Positions 1 through 53,790 of a DNA stretch of 64,000 bases are shown here, piece by piece. The notes under the pieces are model-generated. The model was not told the DNA's origin. It saw only the letters and a list, made by a program, of their open reading frames with translations, and made no database searches. Position 1 is the stretch's first letter. Each line of letters starts with the position of its first letter. The position numbers and the translations under genes are program-made. This stretch comes from a candidate division WOR-3 bacterium (GTDB lineage: Bacteria; Hydrothermota; Tepidihabitantia; Tepidihabitantales; Tepidihabitantaceae): positions 4,411 through 68,410 of the forward strand of contig JBDRUN010000002.1 in NCBI GenBank assembly GCA_039801365.1. The letters run 5' to 3'.

Positions 1-1331
1 GCGTCATCGGCGTTAGCCGCAAGCTCACGGAAGTTGGCCTCGCTCTCGCGCAAAGCGCGGGCGGCACGAATCCGCTCGGTTGCATCCCGCGCCAGTGCTA
101 GGACCAAGGTACGGCCTTCCAGTTCAACGAGTGAACAGGACACGTCCACCGGAACCTCAGTGCCGTCGCGGCGAACATTGACCGCCTCACCGTGGTACTC
201 CCCCCGCTGCAAGAGTGCATCCCGTACCAGCTCCAGTCCGGCCCGCGCTGGTGCTGGAATAATGTCTTCCACTCTCAGTCGCAAAAGTTCCTCTCGCGTG
301 TACCCCAGCATGCGGCAGGCGCTCTCGTTCACGTCAAGGATGCTGCCGTCCAGAGTTTCAAGATACATCGCATCCCGGAGAGCGGCAAATAAACGCCGGT
401 ACTTCTCCTCAGACTCCCGCATCAGACGCTCGGTCCGAACCCGCTCCGTGACGTCGCGGGCAATGGCAAAGAAAAACCGATTGCCATCGTTCATAACCGC
501 GGTCGCGCTGTACTCAACAATGGCTGCGCCACCCGAGGCGGTCAAAATGTCCAGCGTGCCGGAAAGCTGGGGTCGTGACAAGAGCTGGCGGAACTCAGCC
601 TCGGCCGCGCGACGGCCGGGCGGTGGTACAAGGTCGGCTACTGACTTTCCTATTAGCGCCTCCTGCGGAAAGCCGGTGATTTCTGACGCGGCCCGGTTCG
701 CTTCAATGATACGGCCCCGACGATTGACCAGAACCACGGCGTCCGAAGTAGCCTGCAACAGCAGGCCGTACTTTTCCTCGGACGCTCGGGCCGCCTGCTC
801 GGCCCGCCAGTTCTGAGTAACGTCCCGGGCAATGCATACGACTCCGGCAACCCGGCCGGTCTTATCCCGGCCGGCTGTGGCATACAGGTATATCGCAACT
901 TGCTTTCGGTTCCGATGCACGCACTGAAACCCGCCGGCAAAATCGCGGCCGGCCATTATCCGGCCGAGGTCGAAGTGCAGCCGGTCCGCTCCGACTCCGG
1001 ATGCGGGGAATATTACCTCAAACGGCCTGCCAGCAGCTTCGTGCTCGGCATAGCCGAATACCCGTTCTGCCTCGTCGTTCCAGAATATGATGCGACCATG
1101 CCGGTCAAGGTGGATAACGACGTCGCCAGCTTGGACCGCGACCGAGGAGTGAAGTGGACCTGGCCGATGGATGCCGGTGGACAACTGAGAGCCATGTGCC
1201 CGGAGTTCCGCGCTCACCCCTCCAGTCGTTGGCTGCCCAGAGTTCGGCCGGGGTTTCCGGGGTTGTTCCACATTCCGAGCGTGGAACACCCGGCGCTTTT
1301 CCTTCACGGGTTGACTCCTAGCGTGCGCATT
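1..1331 (-). CDS. Multi-PAS domain sensor protein (partial; continues beyond the window start)
   Basis: Minus-strand frame (codon first bases at positions congruent to 2 mod 3) translates to PAS-like sequence, e.g. 'DVVIHLDRHGRIIFWNDEAERVFGYAEHEAAGRPFEVIF...' and 'RESEEKYRRLFAALRDAMYLETLDGSILDVNESACRMLGYTREELL'. ATG at 1331-1329 is preceded by in-frame stops. The ORF track omits it because it runs off the edge. The long plus-strand ORF 34..816 is its Arg/Ser-rich antisense frame. Confidence 0.6.
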
Positions 1332-1685: not shown

Positions 1686-2411
1686 TCAGCGCTGCTCTAC
1701 GACAATCGCTTCAACGTCGCGGAGGTGCGACACCATGTAGTCGGGTCGGTACATGGCAAGAAGCGCAACCGGTCTAAATCCATGGGTTACCGCGCAACTG
1801 GTGATTCCGGCAGCCCGCGCCGCAATGATGTCCTGCTCGGTGTCGCCGACAACCAGCGCGTCTGCGCTCCTTCCGCCAAGGCGTTCGAGCGCCGAAAGGA
1901 ACGGCTCAGGATCGGGCTTATGTTTCCTGCCCTCTGCCCAGCCGTGGATGTAGTCAAAGTAGCAGTCAATGCCTGCTGCACTGGCCGATTCTTCAGCCTG
2001 AGTCTGGTGTTTCGTGGTCACGATCGCAAGCTTCGCACCAATTGTCTTGAGACAAGCAAGCAGTTCCCTTGCTCCGGGGTAGGGCCGTTGAACTTTGAGT
2101 CCGTGAGCCGCGTAGTGCTGGCGGAATGCATTGGCAAACGCCTTTGCCTGATTCGGTTCGGCCGGGTACCCGAGTTCAGCGAGAATCAGCTCCAGGGGCT
2201 TGCCGACCTGTATCAGGATTGTGTCCCGGTCTGGTGGCTCGCGTTGGTCAACCGTTGCGAGCGCGTACCGGACCGACGCCACAAGACTATCGGCCGAGTC
2301 AACCAGCGTGCCGTCGAGGTCAAAGAGAACAAATGGGTAGCGGAGCGAAACCGTCAGGGACTCCAGAGTTCTAAGTTCTTGACTCCGGGCGTTGCCCCGG
2401 ATTCCGGGCAT
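1686..2411 (-). CDS. HAD-superfamily hydrolase (phosphoglycolate phosphatase-like)
   Basis: Motif I '[12 protein letters not shown]' and a '[16 protein letters not shown]' motif. ATG at 2411 lies inside a repeat copy and overlaps the atpB 3' end. The start could instead be further downstream. Confidence 0.7.
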
Positions 2412-3861
2412 CGGACGCCCAGCCCGTCGAATCCTCGGCCTCTTGAGTTCTTTGCCGGTAGTACTTGTCCAGATTCGAGTCCCGAACCCGCTTGAGTTCG
2501 GTTCGCGGGAACATGGCAAGCAGTTCCCAGCCGAGCTCAAGGGTCTGCACGATGGTTCGGTTCTCGAATTCGCCCTGTGACACATACCGTTTCTCGAACT
2601 CGCGGGCGAAGCTGAGATAGACCCTATCCATCTCGGTCAAGGCTGCTTCGCCAAGAATGACCTCGAGTTCTTCGGCCTCCTTGCCCCGAGCATAGCAGGC
2701 GTAGAGCTGGTTGAACAGATCAGCGTGGTCTTCGCGGGTTTTGCCGGCGCCGATGCCCTTGTCTTTGAGCCGGGAGAGTGATGGCAACACGTCAATTGGT
2801 GGCGACACGCCCCGGCGATGCATCGGCCGCGAGAGGATAATCTGCCCTTCGGTAATGTAACCCGTGAGGTCCGGTATCGGATGGGTCTTGTCGTCTTCAG
2901 GCATTGTCAGAACCGGCATCATGGTGATTGAGCCTGGCTGGCCTTTGATGCGACCACAGCGCTCGTAAACCGAGGCGAGGTCGGTGTAAAGGTAACCCGG
3001 GAAGCCACGGCGCCCCGGGATTTCTTTGCGTGCGGCCGAGATTTCGCGTAGCGCTTCGCAGTAGTTGGTCATGTCGGTGAGCACGACGAGTACGTGCATG
3101 CCGAGCGTGAAGGCAAGATACTCAGCTGCGGTCAGGGCGGTGCGAGGTGCGGCAATCCGTTCAATCGCCGGTTCGTCCGCGAGGTTGAGAAAGAGCACCG
3201 TACGTTCAATCGCACCGGACTCGGTAAAGCTTTGAATGAAGAACTGCGCTTCTTCGAGTGTGATTCCCATCGCCGCGAAGACGACTGCAAATGTCGTACG
3301 GCTGGGAGTATCGGAGTCTGAGATTCCGAGTACGGTCGCTTGCCGGACAATCTGGGCCGCGAGCCGGTTGTGGGGGAGACCGGACCCAGAGAATATCGGC
3401 AGCTTTTGTCCGCGCACCAGAGTGTTCAAGCCGTCAATTGCTGAGATTCCGGTCTGGATGAATTCGTTAGGGTATTCGCGGGCGCATGGGTTGATGGGCG
3501 CACCGTTGATGTCGCGTTGTTCCTCCGGGATGATTTCCGGGCCGGAGTCGCGAGGTCGGCCCAGTCCGTCGAATACCCGGCCCATGATGTCCGGTGATAG
3601 TCCAACGGTGATGCCGCGTCCCAGAAATCGGACCCGGGTCCGCGGTACGCTGATGCCTGAGCTTCCTTCGAATACCTGCACGAGCGCACGGTCATGGTCC
3701 ACTTCGAGCACTTGCCCTCGACGCGTCAGTCCGGCAGACTCACGACCGTCCGGGTCGGCAGTACGAATTTCGACCAGCTCCTGATATTTGACCCCTTCAA
3801 CGCCTTCTACCAGCAGGAGTGGACCGGCAACCGATACGACCGTCTGATACTCTTTAATCAT
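2371..3861 (-). CDS. atpB: V-type ATP synthase subunit B
   Basis: Strong family resemblance over the full length ('[20 protein letters not shown]...[14 protein letters not shown]'). The C-terminal tail '[20 protein letters not shown]' is encoded by a repeat-element copy. Confidence 0.9.
2381..2420. repeat. Palindromic repeat family, partial copy 1 (atpB 3' end / HAD start)
   Basis: 'ctccgggcgttgccccggattccgggcatcggacgcc' matches the copy 3 core with 2-3 mismatches. It encodes the atpB tail '...[15 protein letters not shown]' and the ATG of the HAD gene ('MPGIRGNAR'). Confidence 0.7.
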
Positions 3862-5837
3862 TTTTCTGTATTTCCCGCGGTCGGCTCCCTGGCCGCTGCC
3901 TCCTGTGCGCCGGTTTCGGGGCTGACCTGGCCAGTAAGTTCGCGGACTAGTTGCTCGCGAACCGCAGCGATTGCGGTCTCGGCCTCATGTTCGGAGAGGA
4001 ATTTCATCCGTGCAATCCTGTCGCGCACCGGCAGGCGTTCAATTGTGGCAATGTCAACGCCCCGGGCCAGGACCGTCTGGGCAAGGCGGTAGAATTCCAG
4101 AATCACTGTCAGCATTCGGGCCTGCTTTGGCAGCGAAGTGTAGGTGTCCGTCTCGTGGAATGCGTTCTGATGCAGGAAGTCTTCACGCAGCGACCGGGCC
4201 GTTTCCATTACCAGCCGGTCGGCAGCGGAGAGTGCGTCTTTGCCCACCAGCCGGACAATTTCTTCAAGTTCGGCTTCCTTGGACAATAGCGCCATCGCCT
4301 GTTGTGCATCAGCAGTGAACTCTTCGGAGGCCATCTTGGCAAACGCCGGCGCAAGTGATTCGGCGTACAGTGAGTAAGAATTGAGCCATGAAATGGCGGG
4401 GAAATGCCGTCGGAATGCCAATTTATCTTCAAGCGACCAGAATACTTTGACCACGCGGAGCGTTGCCTGTACCACCGGGTCATTCAGGTCACCGCCTGGC
4501 GGCGAGACTGAGCCTACCACCGAAAGTGCCCCTTCGCGGCCCGCTCCACCGGACGTCGGACGCCCGGAGTCCGGAGCAACCCCGGAAGGCCCGACCTGAA
4601 CCGAAACAGACCCGGAATCGGGTTTCAAGGGCGGAGCCCCTGATTCCCCGCACAAGGCGCCGGGCTTGGCCGACTTGTCGAGCCCGTCTGATCCAAGACA
4701 CACAACCCGGCCCGCACGTTCGTAGAACTCGGCAATTCGCGAAGCAAGATAGGCTGGATAGCCTTCTTCCCCGGGCATTTCTTCGAGCCGACCGGAAATC
4801 TCCCGCATTGCCTCGGCCCAGCGCGATGTCGAGTCGGCCTGAAGCGCAACCGAATAGCCCATATCCCGGAAATACTCTCCGATTGTGATGCCGGTGTAGA
4901 CCGAAGCTTCGCGTGCTGCGACCGGCATATTTGACGTGTTCGCAACTAGCACGGTGCGTTTCATGAGCGGCTCGCCTGACTTCGGGTCTTTCAGTTCGGG
5001 GAACTCCATGAGTACGTCGGTCATCTCGTTTCCCCGCTCACCACAGCCAACGAAAACGATAATTTCAGCGTCCGACCACTTCGCAAACTGATGCTGGATT
5101 ACCGTCTTACCGGAGCCGAACGGTCCGGGTACGCAAGCGGTCCCACCCTTTGCCAGCGGAAAGAAGGTGTCAATGACCCGCTGCCCGGTTACCAGTGGCG
5201 CATCCGGCTGTAACCGCGCCTTCACCGGTCGTGGTCGCCGCACTGGCCAGCGCTGAACCATCGTCAACCGGATCTCTTCTCCGCCTTTTCCGCGCAGGAT
5301 ACAGATTGTCTCCTCGACCGTAAACTCGCCGGTCCTGATGTCAATAATCTCACCCGAGACTTCGGGCGGCACCATAATTCGGTGTTCGACGAGGACTGTT
5401 TCTTGGACCGTGCCGAGGATGTCGCCCGGGCCAACCTTATCCCCCTTGTGGCGCAGTGCCTGGAAGCCCCACTTCCGCTTCCGATCCAAGGCCGGGGCTT
5501 CGACGCCACGGGAAAGAAAGTCGCCGGACTTCAAGCGCAGTACGTCCAGGGGCCGCTGGATGCCGTCGTAGATTGACGATATGAGACCCGGGCCGAGTTC
5601 GACCGACAGGGGTTCGAAAGTCGGATAAACCGGGTCCCCGGGGCCGATACCGCCGGTTTCCTCATATACCTGCACAGATGCTCGGTCGCCAGTAAGGTCA
5701 ATGACTTCACCCAGAAGACGCACTGTCCCGACTCGCACGACGTCATACATCTTTGAACCGGACATGCCAGCAGCCACAACGAGCGGGCCGGAAACCTTGA
5801 CCACTCTGCCAACTGAAGCCGACTGCTCTTCCCTCAT
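3858..5837 (-). CDS. atpA: V-type ATP synthase catalytic subunit A, with an in-frame insertion of about 50 aa
   Basis: Walker A 'GPFGSGKT' and the conserved '[26 protein letters not shown]'. A G/S/P-rich segment '[51 protein letters not shown]' falls between the conserved 'CLGSDG' and '[14 protein letters not shown]' blocks. It coincides with repeat copy 4551-4673. Confidence 0.9.
4551..4673. repeat. Palindromic repeat family, copy 2 (in-frame within atpA)
   Basis: 'gacgtcggacgcccggagtccggagcaaccccggaaggcccgac...ccctgattccccgcacaaggcgccgggc' shares a core of about 75 bp with copies 3 and 4. Terminal inverted repeats GTCGGACGCCCGG / GCGCCGGGC. Multiple CCGGGG-loop-CCCCGG hairpins. Confidence 0.8.
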
Positions 5838-27535: not shown

Positions 27536-27774
27536 CGCGTGAGACGACCAACAAGCAGGCCGACGACCACACTCAGGCCAAGGAGCGCAACAAAAGCCAC
27601 CATTCCGGCCCTCAGCGCTTCGCCGATAACCTGCCCTCGGCCGAGTTTGTGCCGTTGATACTCCATGTAGACAATGGCAAACGCTGCTCCACCGCCCAGG
27701 AGACTGAACACCCCGTTCACCGCGAGCAAAGTGGTCAGCATCGGACTTGTCCTACTGTGACTGCGAAGCTCCAT
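27532..27774 (-). CDS. Small two-helix membrane protein (hypothetical)
   Basis: 'MELRSHSRTSPMLTTLLAVNGVFSLLGGGAAFAIVYM...MVAFVALLGLSVVVGLLVGRL'. Overlaps the antiporter 3' end. Weak call. Confidence 0.35.
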   Translation of the reverse strand: MELRSHSRTSPMLTTLLAVNGVFSLLGGGAAFAIVYMEYQRHKLGRGQVIGEALRAGMVAFVALLGLSVVVGLLVGRLTR

Positions 27775-29071
27775 TCTCCGGTTCCTCTTCCTCGGCGTCC
27801 GGGATGAGGCGGACGTCACCGCGCACGCCCTCGGGCTGGCCCATTGCGTCCACGTCCGGCAAGAGGTGCCGCGGTAGGAAGGCAAGCGTGGCGATGACCG
27901 TTGGCACCACCGCACTGGCGATAACCGCAGCGACCAGGAACGAATACTGCGCCTCGTTGACGATGCCGTGCGAGAATCCGTACAGGGCTGAGATTGTACC
28001 GAAAGTCAGCCCGGTTGACATCATCAGAGTATAATACCAGCGTTCAGTGCGTTCCTTCCGGTAGTGAGAAATCACCGGGAACAGTCCCAATGTTTTTGTC
28101 AGCACCTTGCCCCCGAGCAACGCGAGGAACACGAGCGGAGCGCTGATGAGCGCCGAAAGGGAAACAAGCGAACCGGCCCGGATGAAGTAAAACGGCGTGA
28201 GAAATCCTACCGTCAGGGTGCGCAGACGTCGAACAAAGTCGTGGTCCATCGCCGAAGACCCGGCCAGCACCATGCCGATGAGATAGGCGGGCAGTACCGC
28301 TTCGCTGTCCGACCAGAGCGCAAGCGCACCAAGGACAAACAGTACCAATACTACCCACTTGGTCCTCACCGCTGCGGTGCGGTAAGCATAGCGCCGGGCG
28401 ATGCGGCGAGTAAGGAATGGCAGAACAGCCAGGCCCGCGGCCGTGGCCACGGCAAAGACCGCGGTCTTGTACGTGAAAGGTGCAAAGATGAAACCCAGCG
28501 CCAGCACCGTGCCCAGGTCGTTCACGAAACACGCGCCCAGTATCCCTTTGCCAAACTCGGTCTTGTTGAAGCCGGTCTCCAGCATTACTGCGTACACTAC
28601 CGCCATGGAAGTGGTCGAAAGCGCTACTCCGGCGAGCAGACTTGCCTTCACACTCCAGTGAAGCAGAAAGTGCGCTAATACTGTACAGCCCAGAAATGGT
28701 GCGAAGAATCCGACCAGGCCGATTACCGTCACCTCGCCCAGTTTGCTCCGCAGCACTGAAGGTTCAAGCTCTGCTCCGGCCAGAAAGGTGAGCATCACCG
28801 CGCCGGTCGCGGCCAGAAACCGCAACCATTCGGCGTTAGAACCCAAAGAGCCCGGCCCGAAAAAGCGCGTTGCCAAGGAACCCGCGGCCACGCCAAGACA
28901 TATCTCCACCAAGGCGATGGAAATCCGCAGATGATTGGCGATGATGGTGGCGAAAACCGCCAAGGCAAGCCAGACCGCGGCCAGAACAAACGTCTCCTGC
29001 AAAGAATCCTCCGGTTCACTGCTTATCGGACAAATCCGGGCAATAGAAATACCCGGCCTTGCAGGAGTCAT
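27752..29071 (-). CDS. Cation:proton antiporter (CPA2/Kef-type Na+/H+ exchanger)
   Basis: 12-13 TM helices with 'LAAVWLALAV...EICLGVAAG', CPA family. Start probably 'MTPARPG' at 29071. The track ORF extends to 29200. Confidence 0.8.
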   Translation of the reverse strand: MTPARPGISIARICPISSEPEDSLQETFVLAAVWLALAVFATIIANHLRISIALVEICLGVAAGSLATRFFGPGSLGSNAEWLRFLAATGAVMLTFLAGAELEPSVLRSKLGEVTVIGLVGFFAPFLGCTVLAHFLLHWSVKASLLAGVALSTTSMAVVYAVMLETGFNKTEFGKGILGACFVNDLGTVLALGFIFAPFTYKTAVFAVATAAGLAVLPFLTRRIARRYAYRTAAVRTKWVVLVLFVLGALALWSDSEAVLPAYLIGMVLAGSSAMDHDFVRRLRTLTVGFLTPFYFIRAGSLVSLSALISAPLVFLALLGGKVLTKTLGLFPVISHYRKERTERWYYTLMMSTGLTFGTISALYGFSHGIVNEAQYSFLVAAVIASAVVPTVIATLAFLPRHLLPDVDAMGQPEGVRGDVRLIPDAEEEEPENGASQSQ

Positions 29072-29793
29072 CAGCCCGCAGGCGATTCTATGGGGGACTC
29101 CATCCCCGCGGATGTGATTATAGCGCGAAGGAACCGGCCTGCAAGCCTGCCAGAACCCGATAGAGATATGCTCCGGGAACTCGTGTTTGCGGTCGGCCAT
29201 CCGCCTGTTAGAAGAACTACCCGCGCTGGTGGCGGCAGCATTGCGTAGGCTCGTCGTCTCTCATCTGCCGTCATGGTTGGCGAAACTCATGGCGACACAG
29301 GTGCGGCTGGCGCTGCCGACCATACTGCAATGCTGCTTGGCCGCACTTTTTTCGGCCTGACTGGCCGTGCATCTGGCCGGACAACAGCGGCCAGAAGTTG
29401 CGGCGCGCGTGGCCGCCCAACTGAGTGGGGGAGTCACTTCCCCCTCCACAGACAGGGCAAGGCCGTCAACCAGCCTTTGGAAGCTAACTCGCGGTAAGAG
29501 AAACCTTTGGCGCAGTTTGAGACAAGGGCGCAGGCTTCGCCCGGTATTCTCTGCCAAGTCAAGCGGTTGAATAATCGCAACGGGAAAACGGCAGGAATCC
29601 GGCAGGTTGGGCGTTCAAGAAGGTTGGTGATGGCACTGGCAAGACGACAGCTGGACGGCTGTGAGCGTTGGCGCGAGAGCCAAGAGAGCCGCTCTGGAAG
29701 TGGCTGCTGGCCGGGCAGGACATCCGCCGCTGACCTCTGATACTTGACTTCCAGCTTCTGGCTTCTGGCATCTGCCCTCGCCCGCTCCTCCTG

Positions 29794-51013: not shown

Positions 51014-51093
51014 AGCCTCGCCTATCTCTAGCTAGTCTTCGCTTGACGGTCGTACGCGGTGTAGTTACGCTCTTGTGCCTAGCGATACGGGTT

Positions 51094-53292
51094 ATGAAAG
51101 ACACTATGCCACGTCTGCCGATTCTTGTTATACTTGCCCTGTCTGGCCTCGCTTTCGCGCTTTCGCCGCTCGAGCGCGATTGTGTGCTTTACGATGGCTC
51201 GGTCCGGACAACTGATGGCGTGGCCCGGTTGAACGTGCAGGTTCCAGCCGGACGTCAGCTAGTTGGTTTCTTTCTAGGAATCGAGGGCATCGAACAATTT
51301 ACAATATCGCTCAACGGTACGATCTTGAGAACGGTCATGCCCGGACCAACCCCCCGTACCATCATCCGCACCTTGGATTTGAGTGACTTCGCATCCCTAC
51401 TGAAGCCCGGGGTCAACCAGTTGGATATCTTTCCAGCTGATGGCGGCAGCGAATTTAGGCTACGCACCTGGGTCAGCGACCGGGCCTGGTACGTCTCATC
51501 GTTCCATGCGCACACGACCTACTCAGACGGCGTTCTGTCAGTGCACGACCTGCTTCAGGCAGCGCTGGCCGACGGTGGCCGGGCATACGCCGTGACTGAC
51601 CATGAAACCCTCGGCCAGTGCTACGATACCGCCTTCCACGACGTCGGCAATATGACTGTCATCCGCGGGTACGAGTGGACAACTGATTCAGGTCATGCCT
51701 GCTTGGTCGGTATCCAGGGAGCGAATACACTTCCCCACGGTTCGATCCACGACATGATTGACGAAGCTACTTGGCGCGGCGCAATGATACAGGTAAATCA
51801 CCCTACTGATCCGACAATGGAGTGGCTGCGCCGGCCGGCCCTTGACCCTGGGCTGGACTGGCTTGAGGTTTTCAACTCACTCACTTACTTCCCACCTTGC
51901 GCTTTGCGCCGGGAATCAGAGGCTGCTCCGCTTCTAGTCGGGGCTTCCGGGGTTGCCCCGGATTCCGGGCGTCGGAGGTCAGGGGGGCTAGACTCGGATG
52001 CACAGGCGGTCGCTTGGTGGCAGGAACTACTGTCGGGAGGTGCAACCATTGCCGCTGCAGGCTGCTCGGACTACCACGGCATTTATCCGGGCGAAGCACC
52101 ACTCAAGTCGTGCTCATTTGTATGGGCGCCATCCAATCATCCTGACACCATTCTCAAATATACCAAACTCGGTACGGTAATGGTCTTTGACACTCCGGAC
52201 AACTCCCGGCTCTGGCTTTACGCCGACACGAACAACAATGGTTCCTGGGACATTGTCATGGGCGAACACGTCCGGGTGAGCACGGGTTCGAAGACAGTCC
52301 GGTTCCGGCTTGAGGTCGAGGATGCGGACTGGACTGACGTGGTCTATGTATTCGACAAGTCTGGCGAGATATACTCCAAGACGCTCTGGACCGGCGGTGA
52401 CTTTGAATACGAATGGTCTCGTACTTTCTCGTCTGCTGACCGGAACTTCTTCCGGGTCGAGTTGTGCGCTGAGCTTGGGGCTGATTACGAGGGCGTAACC
52501 AACCCGATCTACGTCAACCACCGCGACTACGAACTTGGCCCAACCGAGCTTCTGACCGCCGCGGTTTCCTGGCCGGACACGCTCTACGTCGGTCGGGCCG
52601 ACACCCTGCATTTCCTAATTCGTAATACCGCCGGCTACAGCCCCTACCGAACCGGGCTCGCCGTGGCTCTTGACACAGGCCTCTTCGATGTGGTGCACTG
52701 GCAGACGTCAGGTCCAGGTGTCGGCCGCGTAGTGGAGCGTTCGAGTCAAGGCCACCGAATAATCGAGTGGCAGGCGGGCTACGAGTGGCAGAACCGGCTG
52801 CCAGTCGGAACCAACTTTCAGTACTGGCTCCTGGTCAGACCCAAGGCTGCCGGAAGCAACCCGGTGCTGTTCCGCTCCTGGGCCGACGACCGGTTGTTCA
52901 TCGTGGATGAGGACCCTGGCAGAGGGTTCCTCGGACCAGAGGCCAAGTACTGGTACCGCCGGTCAGTCCCGGTCGGTCAGCTTGTTGGCACTGCCGAGCC
53001 GGTGATGGCAAGACTGGTATCAGATTGGTCGGTCAGTCCCAACCCCGCACCGGACTTCATCGCTTTACAAATTAACTATTCGCCTGATGACCCTCTGCAA
53101 AGCGCCGTGCTTTACGACCTCACCGGACGTGCGCTCGGCGAACTGCCGATTCCCAGACTCGCTCCTGGACCAAACAATATCAAGTGGCAGCTCGGCAATG
53201 TCGCGGGCACGGGTCTTGCCGAGGGCATATATTTCCTGCGGGTATCCACGCACCTCCGGCAGCGGACCGAGCGCATCGTGCTCGCTCGTTAA
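51094..53292 (+). CDS. PHP-domain metal-dependent phosphoesterase with T9SS CTD, carrying an in-frame repeat-element insertion
   Basis: 'SSFHAHTTYSDGVLSVHDLL...AVTDHETL...INHPTDP' PHP motifs. Insertion '[33 protein letters not shown]' encoded by repeat copy 51901-51980. CTD 'LYDLTGRALGELPI...GIYFLRVST'. Confidence 0.8.
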   Translation: MKDTMPRLPILVILALSGLAFALSPLERDCVLYDGSVRTTDGVARLNVQVPAGRQLVGFFLGIEGIEQFTISLNGTILRTVMPGPTPRTIIRTLDLSDFASLLKPGVNQLDIFPADGGSEFRLRTWVSDRAWYVSSFHAHTTYSDGVLSVHDLLQAALADGGRAYAVTDHETLGQCYDTAFHDVGNMTVIRGYEWTTDSGHACLVGIQGANTLPHGSIHDMIDEATWRGAMIQVNHPTDPTMEWLRRPALDPGLDWLEVFNSLTYFPPCALRRESEAAPLLVGASGVAPDSGRRRSGGLDSDAQAVAWWQELLSGGATIAAAGCSDYHGIYPGEAPLKSCSFVWAPSNHPDTILKYTKLGTVMVFDTPDNSRLWLYADTNNNGSWDIVMGEHVRVSTGSKTVRFRLEVEDADWTDVVYVFDKSGEIYSKTLWTGGDFEYEWSRTFSSADRNFFRVELCAELGADYEGVTNPIYVNHRDYELGPTELLTAAVSWPDTLYVGRADTLHFLIRNTAGYSPYRTGLAVALDTGLFDVVHWQTSGPGVGRVVERSSQGHRIIEWQAGYEWQNRLPVGTNFQYWLLVRPKAAGSNPVLFRSWADDRLFIVDEDPGRGFLGPEAKYWYRRSVPVGQLVGTAEPVMARLVSDWSVSPNPAPDFIALQINYSPDDPLQSAVLYDLTGRALGELPIPRLAPGPNNIKWQLGNVAGTGLAEGIYFLRVSTHLRQRTERIVLAR
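51901..51980. repeat. Palindromic repeat family, copy 3 (inverted; in-frame within the PHP gene)
   Basis: Its reverse complement 'gacgcccggaatccggggcaaccccggaagccccgactagaagcggagcagcctctgattcccggcgcaaagc' is near-identical to copy 4 over about 70 bp. Confidence 0.85.
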
Positions 53293-53479: not shown

Positions 53480-53513
53480 AACTTTGGTGTCCGCACGCGG
53501 ACGAGACGGCGCA

Positions 53514-53617
53514 GAGCGCCGGGCGCCAAATGCCCGGAATCCGGGGCAACCCCGGAAGCCCCGACTAGAAGCGGAACAGTCCCTGATTCCCGAAGCAAAG
53601 CGCCGGGCGTCGGACGT
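53514..53617. repeat. Palindromic repeat family, copy 4 (intergenic / 5' UTR), flanked by the 11-bp direct repeat AGCGCCGGGCG
   Basis: 'gcgccgggcgccaaatgcccggaatccggggcaaccccggaagccccgactagaagcggaacagtccctgattcccgaagcaaagcgccgggcgtcggacgtc'. Lies between a TTGACA...TAGCAT promoter and the RBS of the 53791 gene. Confidence 0.85.
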
Positions 53618-53790
53618 CATAAGCTTCGAGGATGTCTAAATGGTCCGGTTTGAGCGGCGGTTTTTCCCGCCTCGCCGATATCAATTTCCGCTGCGCTGGG
53701 TCTTCTACGTCCTTGCGGGCGGACTCGCCGGGTTGATGCTCTGGATCGCGAGACAACTACCGCATATGATTGCTGGCTAAAGGAGAATGC

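Follow-up and report, generated by a model that had tools for sequence, protein, structure and literature searches.

A dispersed, GC-rich repeat inside the ATPase catalytic subunit gene atpA of a candidate division WOR-3 bacterium

The present study concerns a 64-kb stretch of a metagenome-assembled genome (MAG) from candidate division WOR-3, hereafter the window, and specifically the gene atpA, which encodes the catalytic subunit A of a V/A-type ATPase. [quoted passage not shown] Judged from its sequence, AtpA is most likely functional, with a floppy, harmless extra loop. An initial annotation of this DNA had noticed the loop but not that the same repeat lies in frame in other genes as well, a finding that turns an odd loop into a coding-compatible repeat family. 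Coordinates are window positions unless prefixed L.

The extra loop of AtpA

Features of the atpA locus, with the evidence for each:
3858..5837, minus strand: atpA, V/A-type ATPase catalytic subunit A, 659 aa, MEO0080777.1 (translation, Pfam, homology)
5103..5126, minus strand: Walker A/P-loop GPFGSGKT, aa 238-245, intact (invariant columns G238-T245)
4539..4685, minus strand: extra segment of AtpA, aa 385-433, 49 residues (phmmer against 1VDZ, loop-length census, AlphaFold2 confidence)
4546..4680, plus strand: repeat copy A, in frame inside atpA, which reads it on the opposite strand (blastn; nhmmer E 6e-26)

AtpA is encoded on an 80.9-kb contig of the MAG and is about 70-80% identical to other WOR-3 AtpA proteins. 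Its architecture comprises an N-terminal barrel, an A-specific barrel-sandwich insert, an alpha/beta nucleotide-binding domain, and a V/A C-terminal domain; all four A-subunit domains (PF02874, PF16886, PF00006, and PF22919) score above the Pfam cut-offs, and phmmer matches to A subunits in the PDB reach E values down to 1e-233. The Pfam match to the nucleotide-binding domain is cut in two by the insert, with the break at residue 378. The initial annotation held that Walker A and the flanking motifs are intact, which proved correct: the GERGNEM region and the SPPGGD motif are likewise undamaged, and the invariant columns are those found in 118 homologues. Its further suggestion that the gene is probably functional agrees with these catalytic columns, with the low number of non-synonymous changes between strains described below, with the intact gene order atpC-F-A-B around atpA, and with the V-type ATPase being a common feature of WOR-3 (PMC12285271).

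An insert of ~50 aa had been placed after 'CLGSDG', and the 51-residue peptide then quoted is found exactly at aa 385-435. The interval assigned to it, 4551-4673, lies inside the feature, but the full extra segment is wider, at 4539-4685 (minus strand). Where AtpA has residues 385-433, the A subunit of Pyrococcus horikoshii (1VDZ) has one residue, and the phmmer alignment between the two splits at 384/434. Solved A subunits do not have the insert, and neither do 117 of the 118 other homologues; the remaining one, P0004, has an unrelated expansion there. Among the 119 homologues, 71 have a G382-G436 loop of 9 aa, 25 one of 8 aa, and 16 one of 5 aa; outliers of 16, 16, 19, and 28 aa occur in four lineages, and in the AtpA studied here the loop reaches 53 aa. 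The net contribution of the repeat is ~38 aa (114 nt). The rest of the segment is a longer host loop, which, repeat aside, is about 7 aa above the usual length and is also present in the relative P0002.

A comparison with close relatives lacking the insert had been proposed as a check in the initial annotation. P0002, the closest sequenced relative (about 80% amino acid identity), has a 16-aa loop that lacks the repeat and is bounded by homologous flanks ('...PG' on one side, '..A RE' on the other). This empty loop therefore implies a net insertion of about 114 nt that took place after the split from P0002 and before the split between the two strains considered next. On the contig of the closest AtpA relative (L002:2482-3411; JGI Ga0172364_10040573), atpB turns unrelated after about 34 codons, and the contig is probably chimeric or rearranged.

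The second strain is represented by GCA_965649195.1, a sister assembly of the same species that is collinear with the window at 98.1-98.5% nucleotide identity. Over the whole of atpA the two strains differ by 22 synonymous and 6 non-synonymous codons. Outside the insert (610 codons), 20 differences are synonymous and 4 non-synonymous, while the 49 codons of the insert contain 2 of each kind. Because so few of the differences between strains are non-synonymous, the comparison indicates that atpA is under purifying selection and the insert appears more weakly constrained, on counts that are small.

Structure prediction is consistent with this picture of an intact enzyme with an added loop. An AlphaFold2 model built from a 119-sequence alignment has a predicted template modelling score of 0.78; an earlier 23-sequence alignment had given a predicted local distance difference test score (pLDDT) of 50.6 and was unusable. 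The model superposes on the A subunits of Enterococcus hirae and Thermus thermophilus with target-normalised TM scores of 0.83-0.86, and Foldseek aligns it to 3VR4 chain A (E. hirae V1) with TM scores of 0.84-0.86. Residues 387-431 have a pLDDT of 26-33 and no secondary structure, and they lie between strands 376-379 and 435-444. The insert is thus predicted to form a disordered loop at the tip of a beta-hairpin, and the reading of it as an extra loop, already made in the initial annotation, fits both these low values and the length variation of relatives at the same loop. We infer that the tip of the hairpin is exposed to solvent within the A3B3 hexamer, a reading favoured by independent length variation of this loop in four other lineages. 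Changes in length seem to have recurred at this tip.

The P0004 lineage, also WOR-3, has at the same AtpA loop an unrelated 19-aa expansion of (CCCCGGA)n-like simple sequence (L003:9102-9251). That this P0004 insert might be a relative of the repeat is not supported: its sequence is (CCCCGGA)n-like, and no further copies occur in the P0004 loci. Matches of 2.6 kb that looked intein-like among AtpA-related loci are merely joins of A plus B subunits.

Copies of the repeat in other genes

Copies beyond atpA and the genes that host them:
51887..51990, minus strand: repeat copy B, an in-frame insertion of about 29 aa in a PHP-domain protein (repeat search, blastn, nhmmer)
51043..53292, plus strand: the PHP-domain protein, annotated as a CehA/McbA-family metallohydrolase, 749 aa, MEO0080820.1 (Pfam PHP)
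53513..53621, plus strand: repeat copy C, intergenic, bearing the end motif CCGGGCGTCGGACGTC (repeat search, blastn, nhmmer)
2354..2422, minus strand: partial repeat copy D, at the end of atpB (repeat search, blastn, nhmmer)
2371..3861, minus strand: atpB, subunit B of the V/A-type ATPase, 496 aa, its C-terminal tail derived from the repeat (Pfam, comparison with a relative)
1189..1296, minus strand: partial repeat copy E, within the first ~40 codons of a called PAS sensor open reading frame (ORF) (repeat search, blastn, nhmmer)
L089:11456-11577: diverged copy in a GT2 glycosyltransferase (gene L089:11264-12490, contig CBFGKA010000015.1 of GCA_965649195.1)
L089:2457-2574 and 3146-3240: two diverged copies in a 1094-aa GFO_IDH_MocA-Hexapep-DegT enzyme (L089:1220-4504)
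L088:15611-15696: weak copy that makes up part of the C-terminal tail in another GT2, whose counterpart in the window's MAG is MEO0080830.1 (nhmmer E 0.003 on the first pass, 3e-9 after iteration)

The element is a dispersed, GC-rich (58-69% GC) repeat of about 90-135 nt with five copies in the window. These were found by window-wide repeat finding, by blastn, and with an nhmmer profile built from the three long copies (A, B, and C), which recovers the five copies and nothing else in the window. Against copies B and C, copy A aligns over 71-74 nt with 78-79% identity (blastn E 4e-14 and 1e-13), and it holds an extra 27 nt internally, a partial duplication, relative to both; the nhmmer matches at 51887-51990 and 53513-53621 have E values of 1e-26 to 1e-31, and B and C share 93% identity over 72 nt. 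The earlier statement that the AtpA insert is encoded by a repeat is borne out by these matches of nt 4546-4680. Tandem Repeats Finder reports nothing at 4539-4685, and Rfam assigns no family to any of the copies.

The PHP protein reads copy B in the very repeat orientation and frame in which AtpA reads copy A. An exhaustive HMMER search yielded PHP homologues at 38-50% identity (P0121-P0130), all of which align without the ~29-aa block, and the site of insertion is indel-variable among homologues. Copy D encodes the last ~17 codons and the stop of atpB together with the called start ATG of the downstream HAD hydrolase; AtpB has 496 aa here compared with 469 aa in the syntenic relative L003. 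The called atpB and hydrolase genes overlap by 41 nt via copy D (2371-2423 / 2330-2420), and the true start of the hydrolase may be further downstream than the called ATG. The PAS sensor ORF whose 5' part contains copy E has a called start at 1307, and its true start is uncertain.

In the sister assembly, copies A-E occupy the same positions. Contig walking in that assembly added 31 kb beyond the window, for a total of 95.4 kb of species sequence, in which an iterated profile search converged on nine copies. Eight of the nine overlap ORFs, and five are internal and in frame, spread over four proteins. The copy in the GT2 glycosyltransferase inserts 40 aa in frame (aa 67-106) and splits the Pfam domain PF00535; it has no counterpart in PDB 9omj, where it falls between residues 57/57, and the orthologue in the window's MAG, MEO0081669.1, contains the identical insert. 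The AtpA, PHP, and GT2 inserts are therefore all present in both assemblies. In the 1094-aa enzyme the insertion sites are inter-domain linkers, and both linkers are expanded, to about 120 and 70 aa as against about 15-25 aa; homologues with the same architecture have about 915 aa. The repeat does not account for the first 80 aa of linker 1. The idea that repeats created this three-domain fusion was rejected, since the same architecture (~915 aa) is common elsewhere and the linkers alone are expanded.

Across these hosts at least four strand and frame combinations of the element are translated. The variety of strands and frames, together with the one intergenic copy, therefore identifies a repeat at the level of DNA rather than a shuffled protein module. 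With regard to distribution, exact-pattern scans for the repeat core gave no match in 185,579 GTDB representative genomes or in JGI metagenome contigs; neither this species nor its repeat is represented there. A profile scan of 85 atp-linked loci (1.49 Mb), mostly from distant Firmicutes but including four WOR-3 MAGs, gave, among the matches listed, no copy from any other species. Within this sampling, the repeat family is confined to the species studied here. A word-indexed protein search with the repeat peptides in four frames was also negative, a result that carries no weight because the index misses embedded segments of 30 residues (in a local control the PHP protein had an expected E of 5e-7).

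Three further observations touch neighbouring sequence. An N-terminal barrel loop of AtpB (aa 33-46; window 3750-3790) is ~7 aa longer than the 'LPSGEN' of a relative and is unrelated to the repeat. The sister assembly has an IS481-like helix-turn-helix/transposase gene pair (L001:16772-18084) 4.3 kb past the start of the window; its homologues in the window's MAG are on separate short contigs, so the pair probably breaks that assembly. A Na+/H+-exchanger-family ORF (27752-29200) has a fluoride riboswitch (RF01734, 45.9 bits, 29055-29116, minus strand) at its 5' end, and the call of that ORF is probably over-extended across the riboswitch.

Origin and fate of the insert

We propose that a species-specific repeat was copied into atpA at the tip of the beta-hairpin that follows the 'RVVCLG' strand of the nucleotide-binding domain, either by transposition in trans or by recombination. 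Because ~114 nt is a multiple of three and the frame is stop-free, the ribosome would read through the insert, and the outcome would be about 38 additional G/S/P-rich residues in a flexible, disordered loop, with the catalytic fold undisturbed. The insert would be a tolerated passenger, that is, selfish or presumably neutral DNA. The element would have inserted in the same way in at least three other proteins, and it would supply the terminal residues of AtpB. Only copies that are in frame, stop-free, and located in a tolerant loop or linker would persist in coding sequence. An element selected to be stop-free is not supported, the number of open frames being that expected by chance at 58-69% GC; such a chance-level number means that persistence in genes is best explained by filtering of this kind.

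The motif GACGTCSGACGCCCGG is enriched, with 12 matches against 3.1 expected; in copies A, B, and D it is found at the left end, and in copy C at the right end in inverted form. A recurrent hairpin across copies is local and only 6-7 bp long. Two conventional mobile arrangements were considered and rejected. Copies B and C, in inverted orientation and separated by 1.56 kb, are not the ends of an insertion sequence (IS), for the interval between them is the C-terminal half of the PHP gene. Nor is there a template/variable-repeat pair of a diversity-generating retroelement: the copies are inverted, no reverse transcriptase is present, more than two copies occur in different genes, and the mismatches extend beyond adenines.

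A number of observations weigh against the proposal that a mobile repeat was copied into AtpA and is tolerated there. The window encodes no transposase, no REP-associated tyrosine transposase (RAYT), and no reverse transcriptase; no autonomous partner IS or transposase whose ends match the repeat came to light in the 95 kb examined, and the ends of the nearby IS481-like gene do not match the repeat. None of the copies has two good terminal repeats, and in the nine-copy alignment a GCGCCGGGCGTCSGAC-like sequence lies at both ends and can be read as direct or inverted repeats. The atpA junctions, compared with the empty site of P0002/L002, have no target-site duplication, and the left junction coincides with a host 'CCCGGC' microhomology. 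All copies are co-located in the two strains, and because their positions are identical there is no evidence of recent mobility. Folding of the element as DNA gives z scores of -1.7 to -2.0, with 6-12 of 200 shuffled sequences folding equally well, and its frames are open no more often than those of shuffled or composition controls. The four added copies are diverged, with first-pass nhmmer E values of 5e-5 to 6e-3, and the census of copies covers just 95 kb of species sequence. Finally, translation of the insert and activity of the ATPase are predictions from sequence.

The alternative that the insert has been co-opted, so that the G/S/P-rich loop now serves as a regulatory or phosphorylatable tether, or as a contact to the peripheral stalk or another partner, and is kept by selection, seems unlikely. 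It would account for an insert that stays in frame and stop-free in two strains, that resides in the catalytic subunit of what is probably the main cellular ATPase, and that contains two PDSG motifs. However, the ratio of non-synonymous to synonymous differences is 2:2 inside the insert and 4:20 outside it, on tiny counts, and comparison with other copies puts substitutions at every one of the three codon positions (10/4/7 between copies A and C). Moreover, the insert is predicted to be disordered, the same sequence occurs in unrelated enzymes and in an intergenic spacer, and the closest relative, P0002, does without it.

V-ATPase A subunits are classic intein hosts, and the insert lies inside the nucleotide-binding domain. 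The possibility that the segment is removed before maturity, as a mini-intein or as an intervening sequence at the RNA level, or that atpA is a decaying pseudogene, is nonetheless distinctly improbable. At 38-49 aa the segment is far below intein size, and it lacks the terminal Cys/Ser...His-Asn plus Cys/Ser/Thr signature, starting instead with 'LDK/AL' and ending in 'GGAG' before 'RE'. It is thus not an intein, being too short and without splicing motifs. Rfam detects no RNA family at the insert, and in other genes, too, all internal copies are in frame and lack stops, as translation predicts. Against decay stand the low rate of non-synonymous change and the intact motifs.

Growth of the loop in place, by slippage or low-complexity expansion with a likeness to other loci that is merely compositional, has a precedent in the 19-aa expansion of P0004 at the same loop, and the internal 27-nt partial duplication of copy A might be read in the same way. 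This explanation is so improbable that we regard it as refuted by the matches of 71-74 nt at 78-79% identity (E 1e-13 to 4e-14), by the nhmmer E value of 6e-26, by the blank result of Tandem Repeats Finder across the segment, and by the 93% identity of copies B and C. Least probable of all is an assembly artefact: MAGs can collapse or misjoin at repeats, but a repeat-induced chimera inside atpA, the concern voiced in the initial annotation, is very unlikely because the sister assembly, from another data set, bears the same insertion site with four strain-specific substitutions of its own within 12.5 kb of collinear sequence, the reading frame is kept at the junctions, and the PHP and GT2 inserts are likewise reproduced.

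Significance and comparison with known repeats

For the biology of the ATPase the message is ordinary: a floppy extra loop in an enzyme that most likely works. We raise, tentatively, the idea that this WOR-3 lineage harbours an active, genome-wide family of coding-compatible selfish repeats. If this is true, then the density of ~1 copy per 10 kb, extrapolated to a genome of about 2 Mb, would correspond to roughly two hundred copies, and the family would routinely remodel proteins through new loops in core enzymes (the ATP synthase catalytic subunit among them), stretched linkers, and donated start and stop codons. It would also provide a second and independent instance of what RPEs do, this time GC-rich and in a phylum that is free-living and uncultured. 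In-frame selfish DNA in protein genes is textbook knowledge in Rickettsia and anecdotal elsewhere; the present case is possibly the first RPE-like one in WOR-3. A second clear case would suggest that the phenomenon depends on the composition of the element and the tolerance of loops and is not a peculiarity of Rickettsia. In addition, the insert is a natural experiment on the tolerance to insertion of the A-subunit hairpin in a highly conserved enzyme. For annotation it serves as a warning, as repeat copies here lengthen ORFs, provide what look like start and stop codons, and inflate the lengths of proteins annotated from MAGs.

Several known systems invite comparison. Inteins of the VMA1 type are also selfish, in frame, and located in the nucleotide-binding domain of the same protein family. 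However, inteins have at least about 130 aa, occupy conserved catalytic-site positions, carry splicing motifs, and are excised, whereas the segment described here measures 38-49 aa, is placed in a variable loop, carries none of the splicing motifs, and is presumably retained. Repetitive extragenic palindromic (REP) sequences and bacterial interspersed mosaic elements, which are RAYT-mobilised and CGTC-tagged (PMC3733652), resemble the repeat in their GC-richness, in a CGTC-containing end motif, GACGTCSGACG in the repeat, and in a small stem-loop, CCGGGGCAACCCCGG. In contrast to this unit of about 100 nt, which is largely intragenic and has no RAYT in the sequence examined, REPs are 20-40 nt long and extragenic.

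MITEs that occur inside genes, such as ERIC, Correia/CREE, and the Anabaena MITEs (PMC10969869, PMC3184786), are a further comparison. Like the repeat, they are small, non-autonomous, and multi-copy, with GC-rich end motifs; in-frame fusions are possible, and they give start or stop codons to neighbouring genes, as copy D does here. The differences are that no clean terminal inverted repeats, target-site duplications, or parent IS were found here, and that eight of nine copies overlap ORFs, whereas MITEs are usually mostly intergenic.

RPEs and intragenic MITEs both form in-frame fusions with host ORFs, according to a review (PMC10969869), and the repeat behaves like them, as a short sequence of non-coding origin that ends up as a translated part of unrelated functional proteins. 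To the extent summarised in PMC10969869, RPEs (Ogata et al. 2000 Science, 2002 Genome Res) are dispersed repeats of about 100-150 bp that lie in unrelated functional protein genes, in frame, as the repeat does, and at fold-compatible positions, as the sites of the repeat appear to be. In both cases copies are found in non-coding DNA too, no transposase is encoded, and the distribution is restricted to one lineage. Homology between the sequences of the two is implausible. RPEs are AT-rich and belong to an obligate intracellular alphaproteobacterium, whereas the element studied here has 58-69% GC and belongs to a WOR-3 bacterium of free-living type. Furthermore, it is weakly palindromic, its hosts read varied frames and strands and yield no single conserved peptide, and its copy number is derived from 95 kb. 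The element is best described as an RPE analogue and not as a member of the RPE family.

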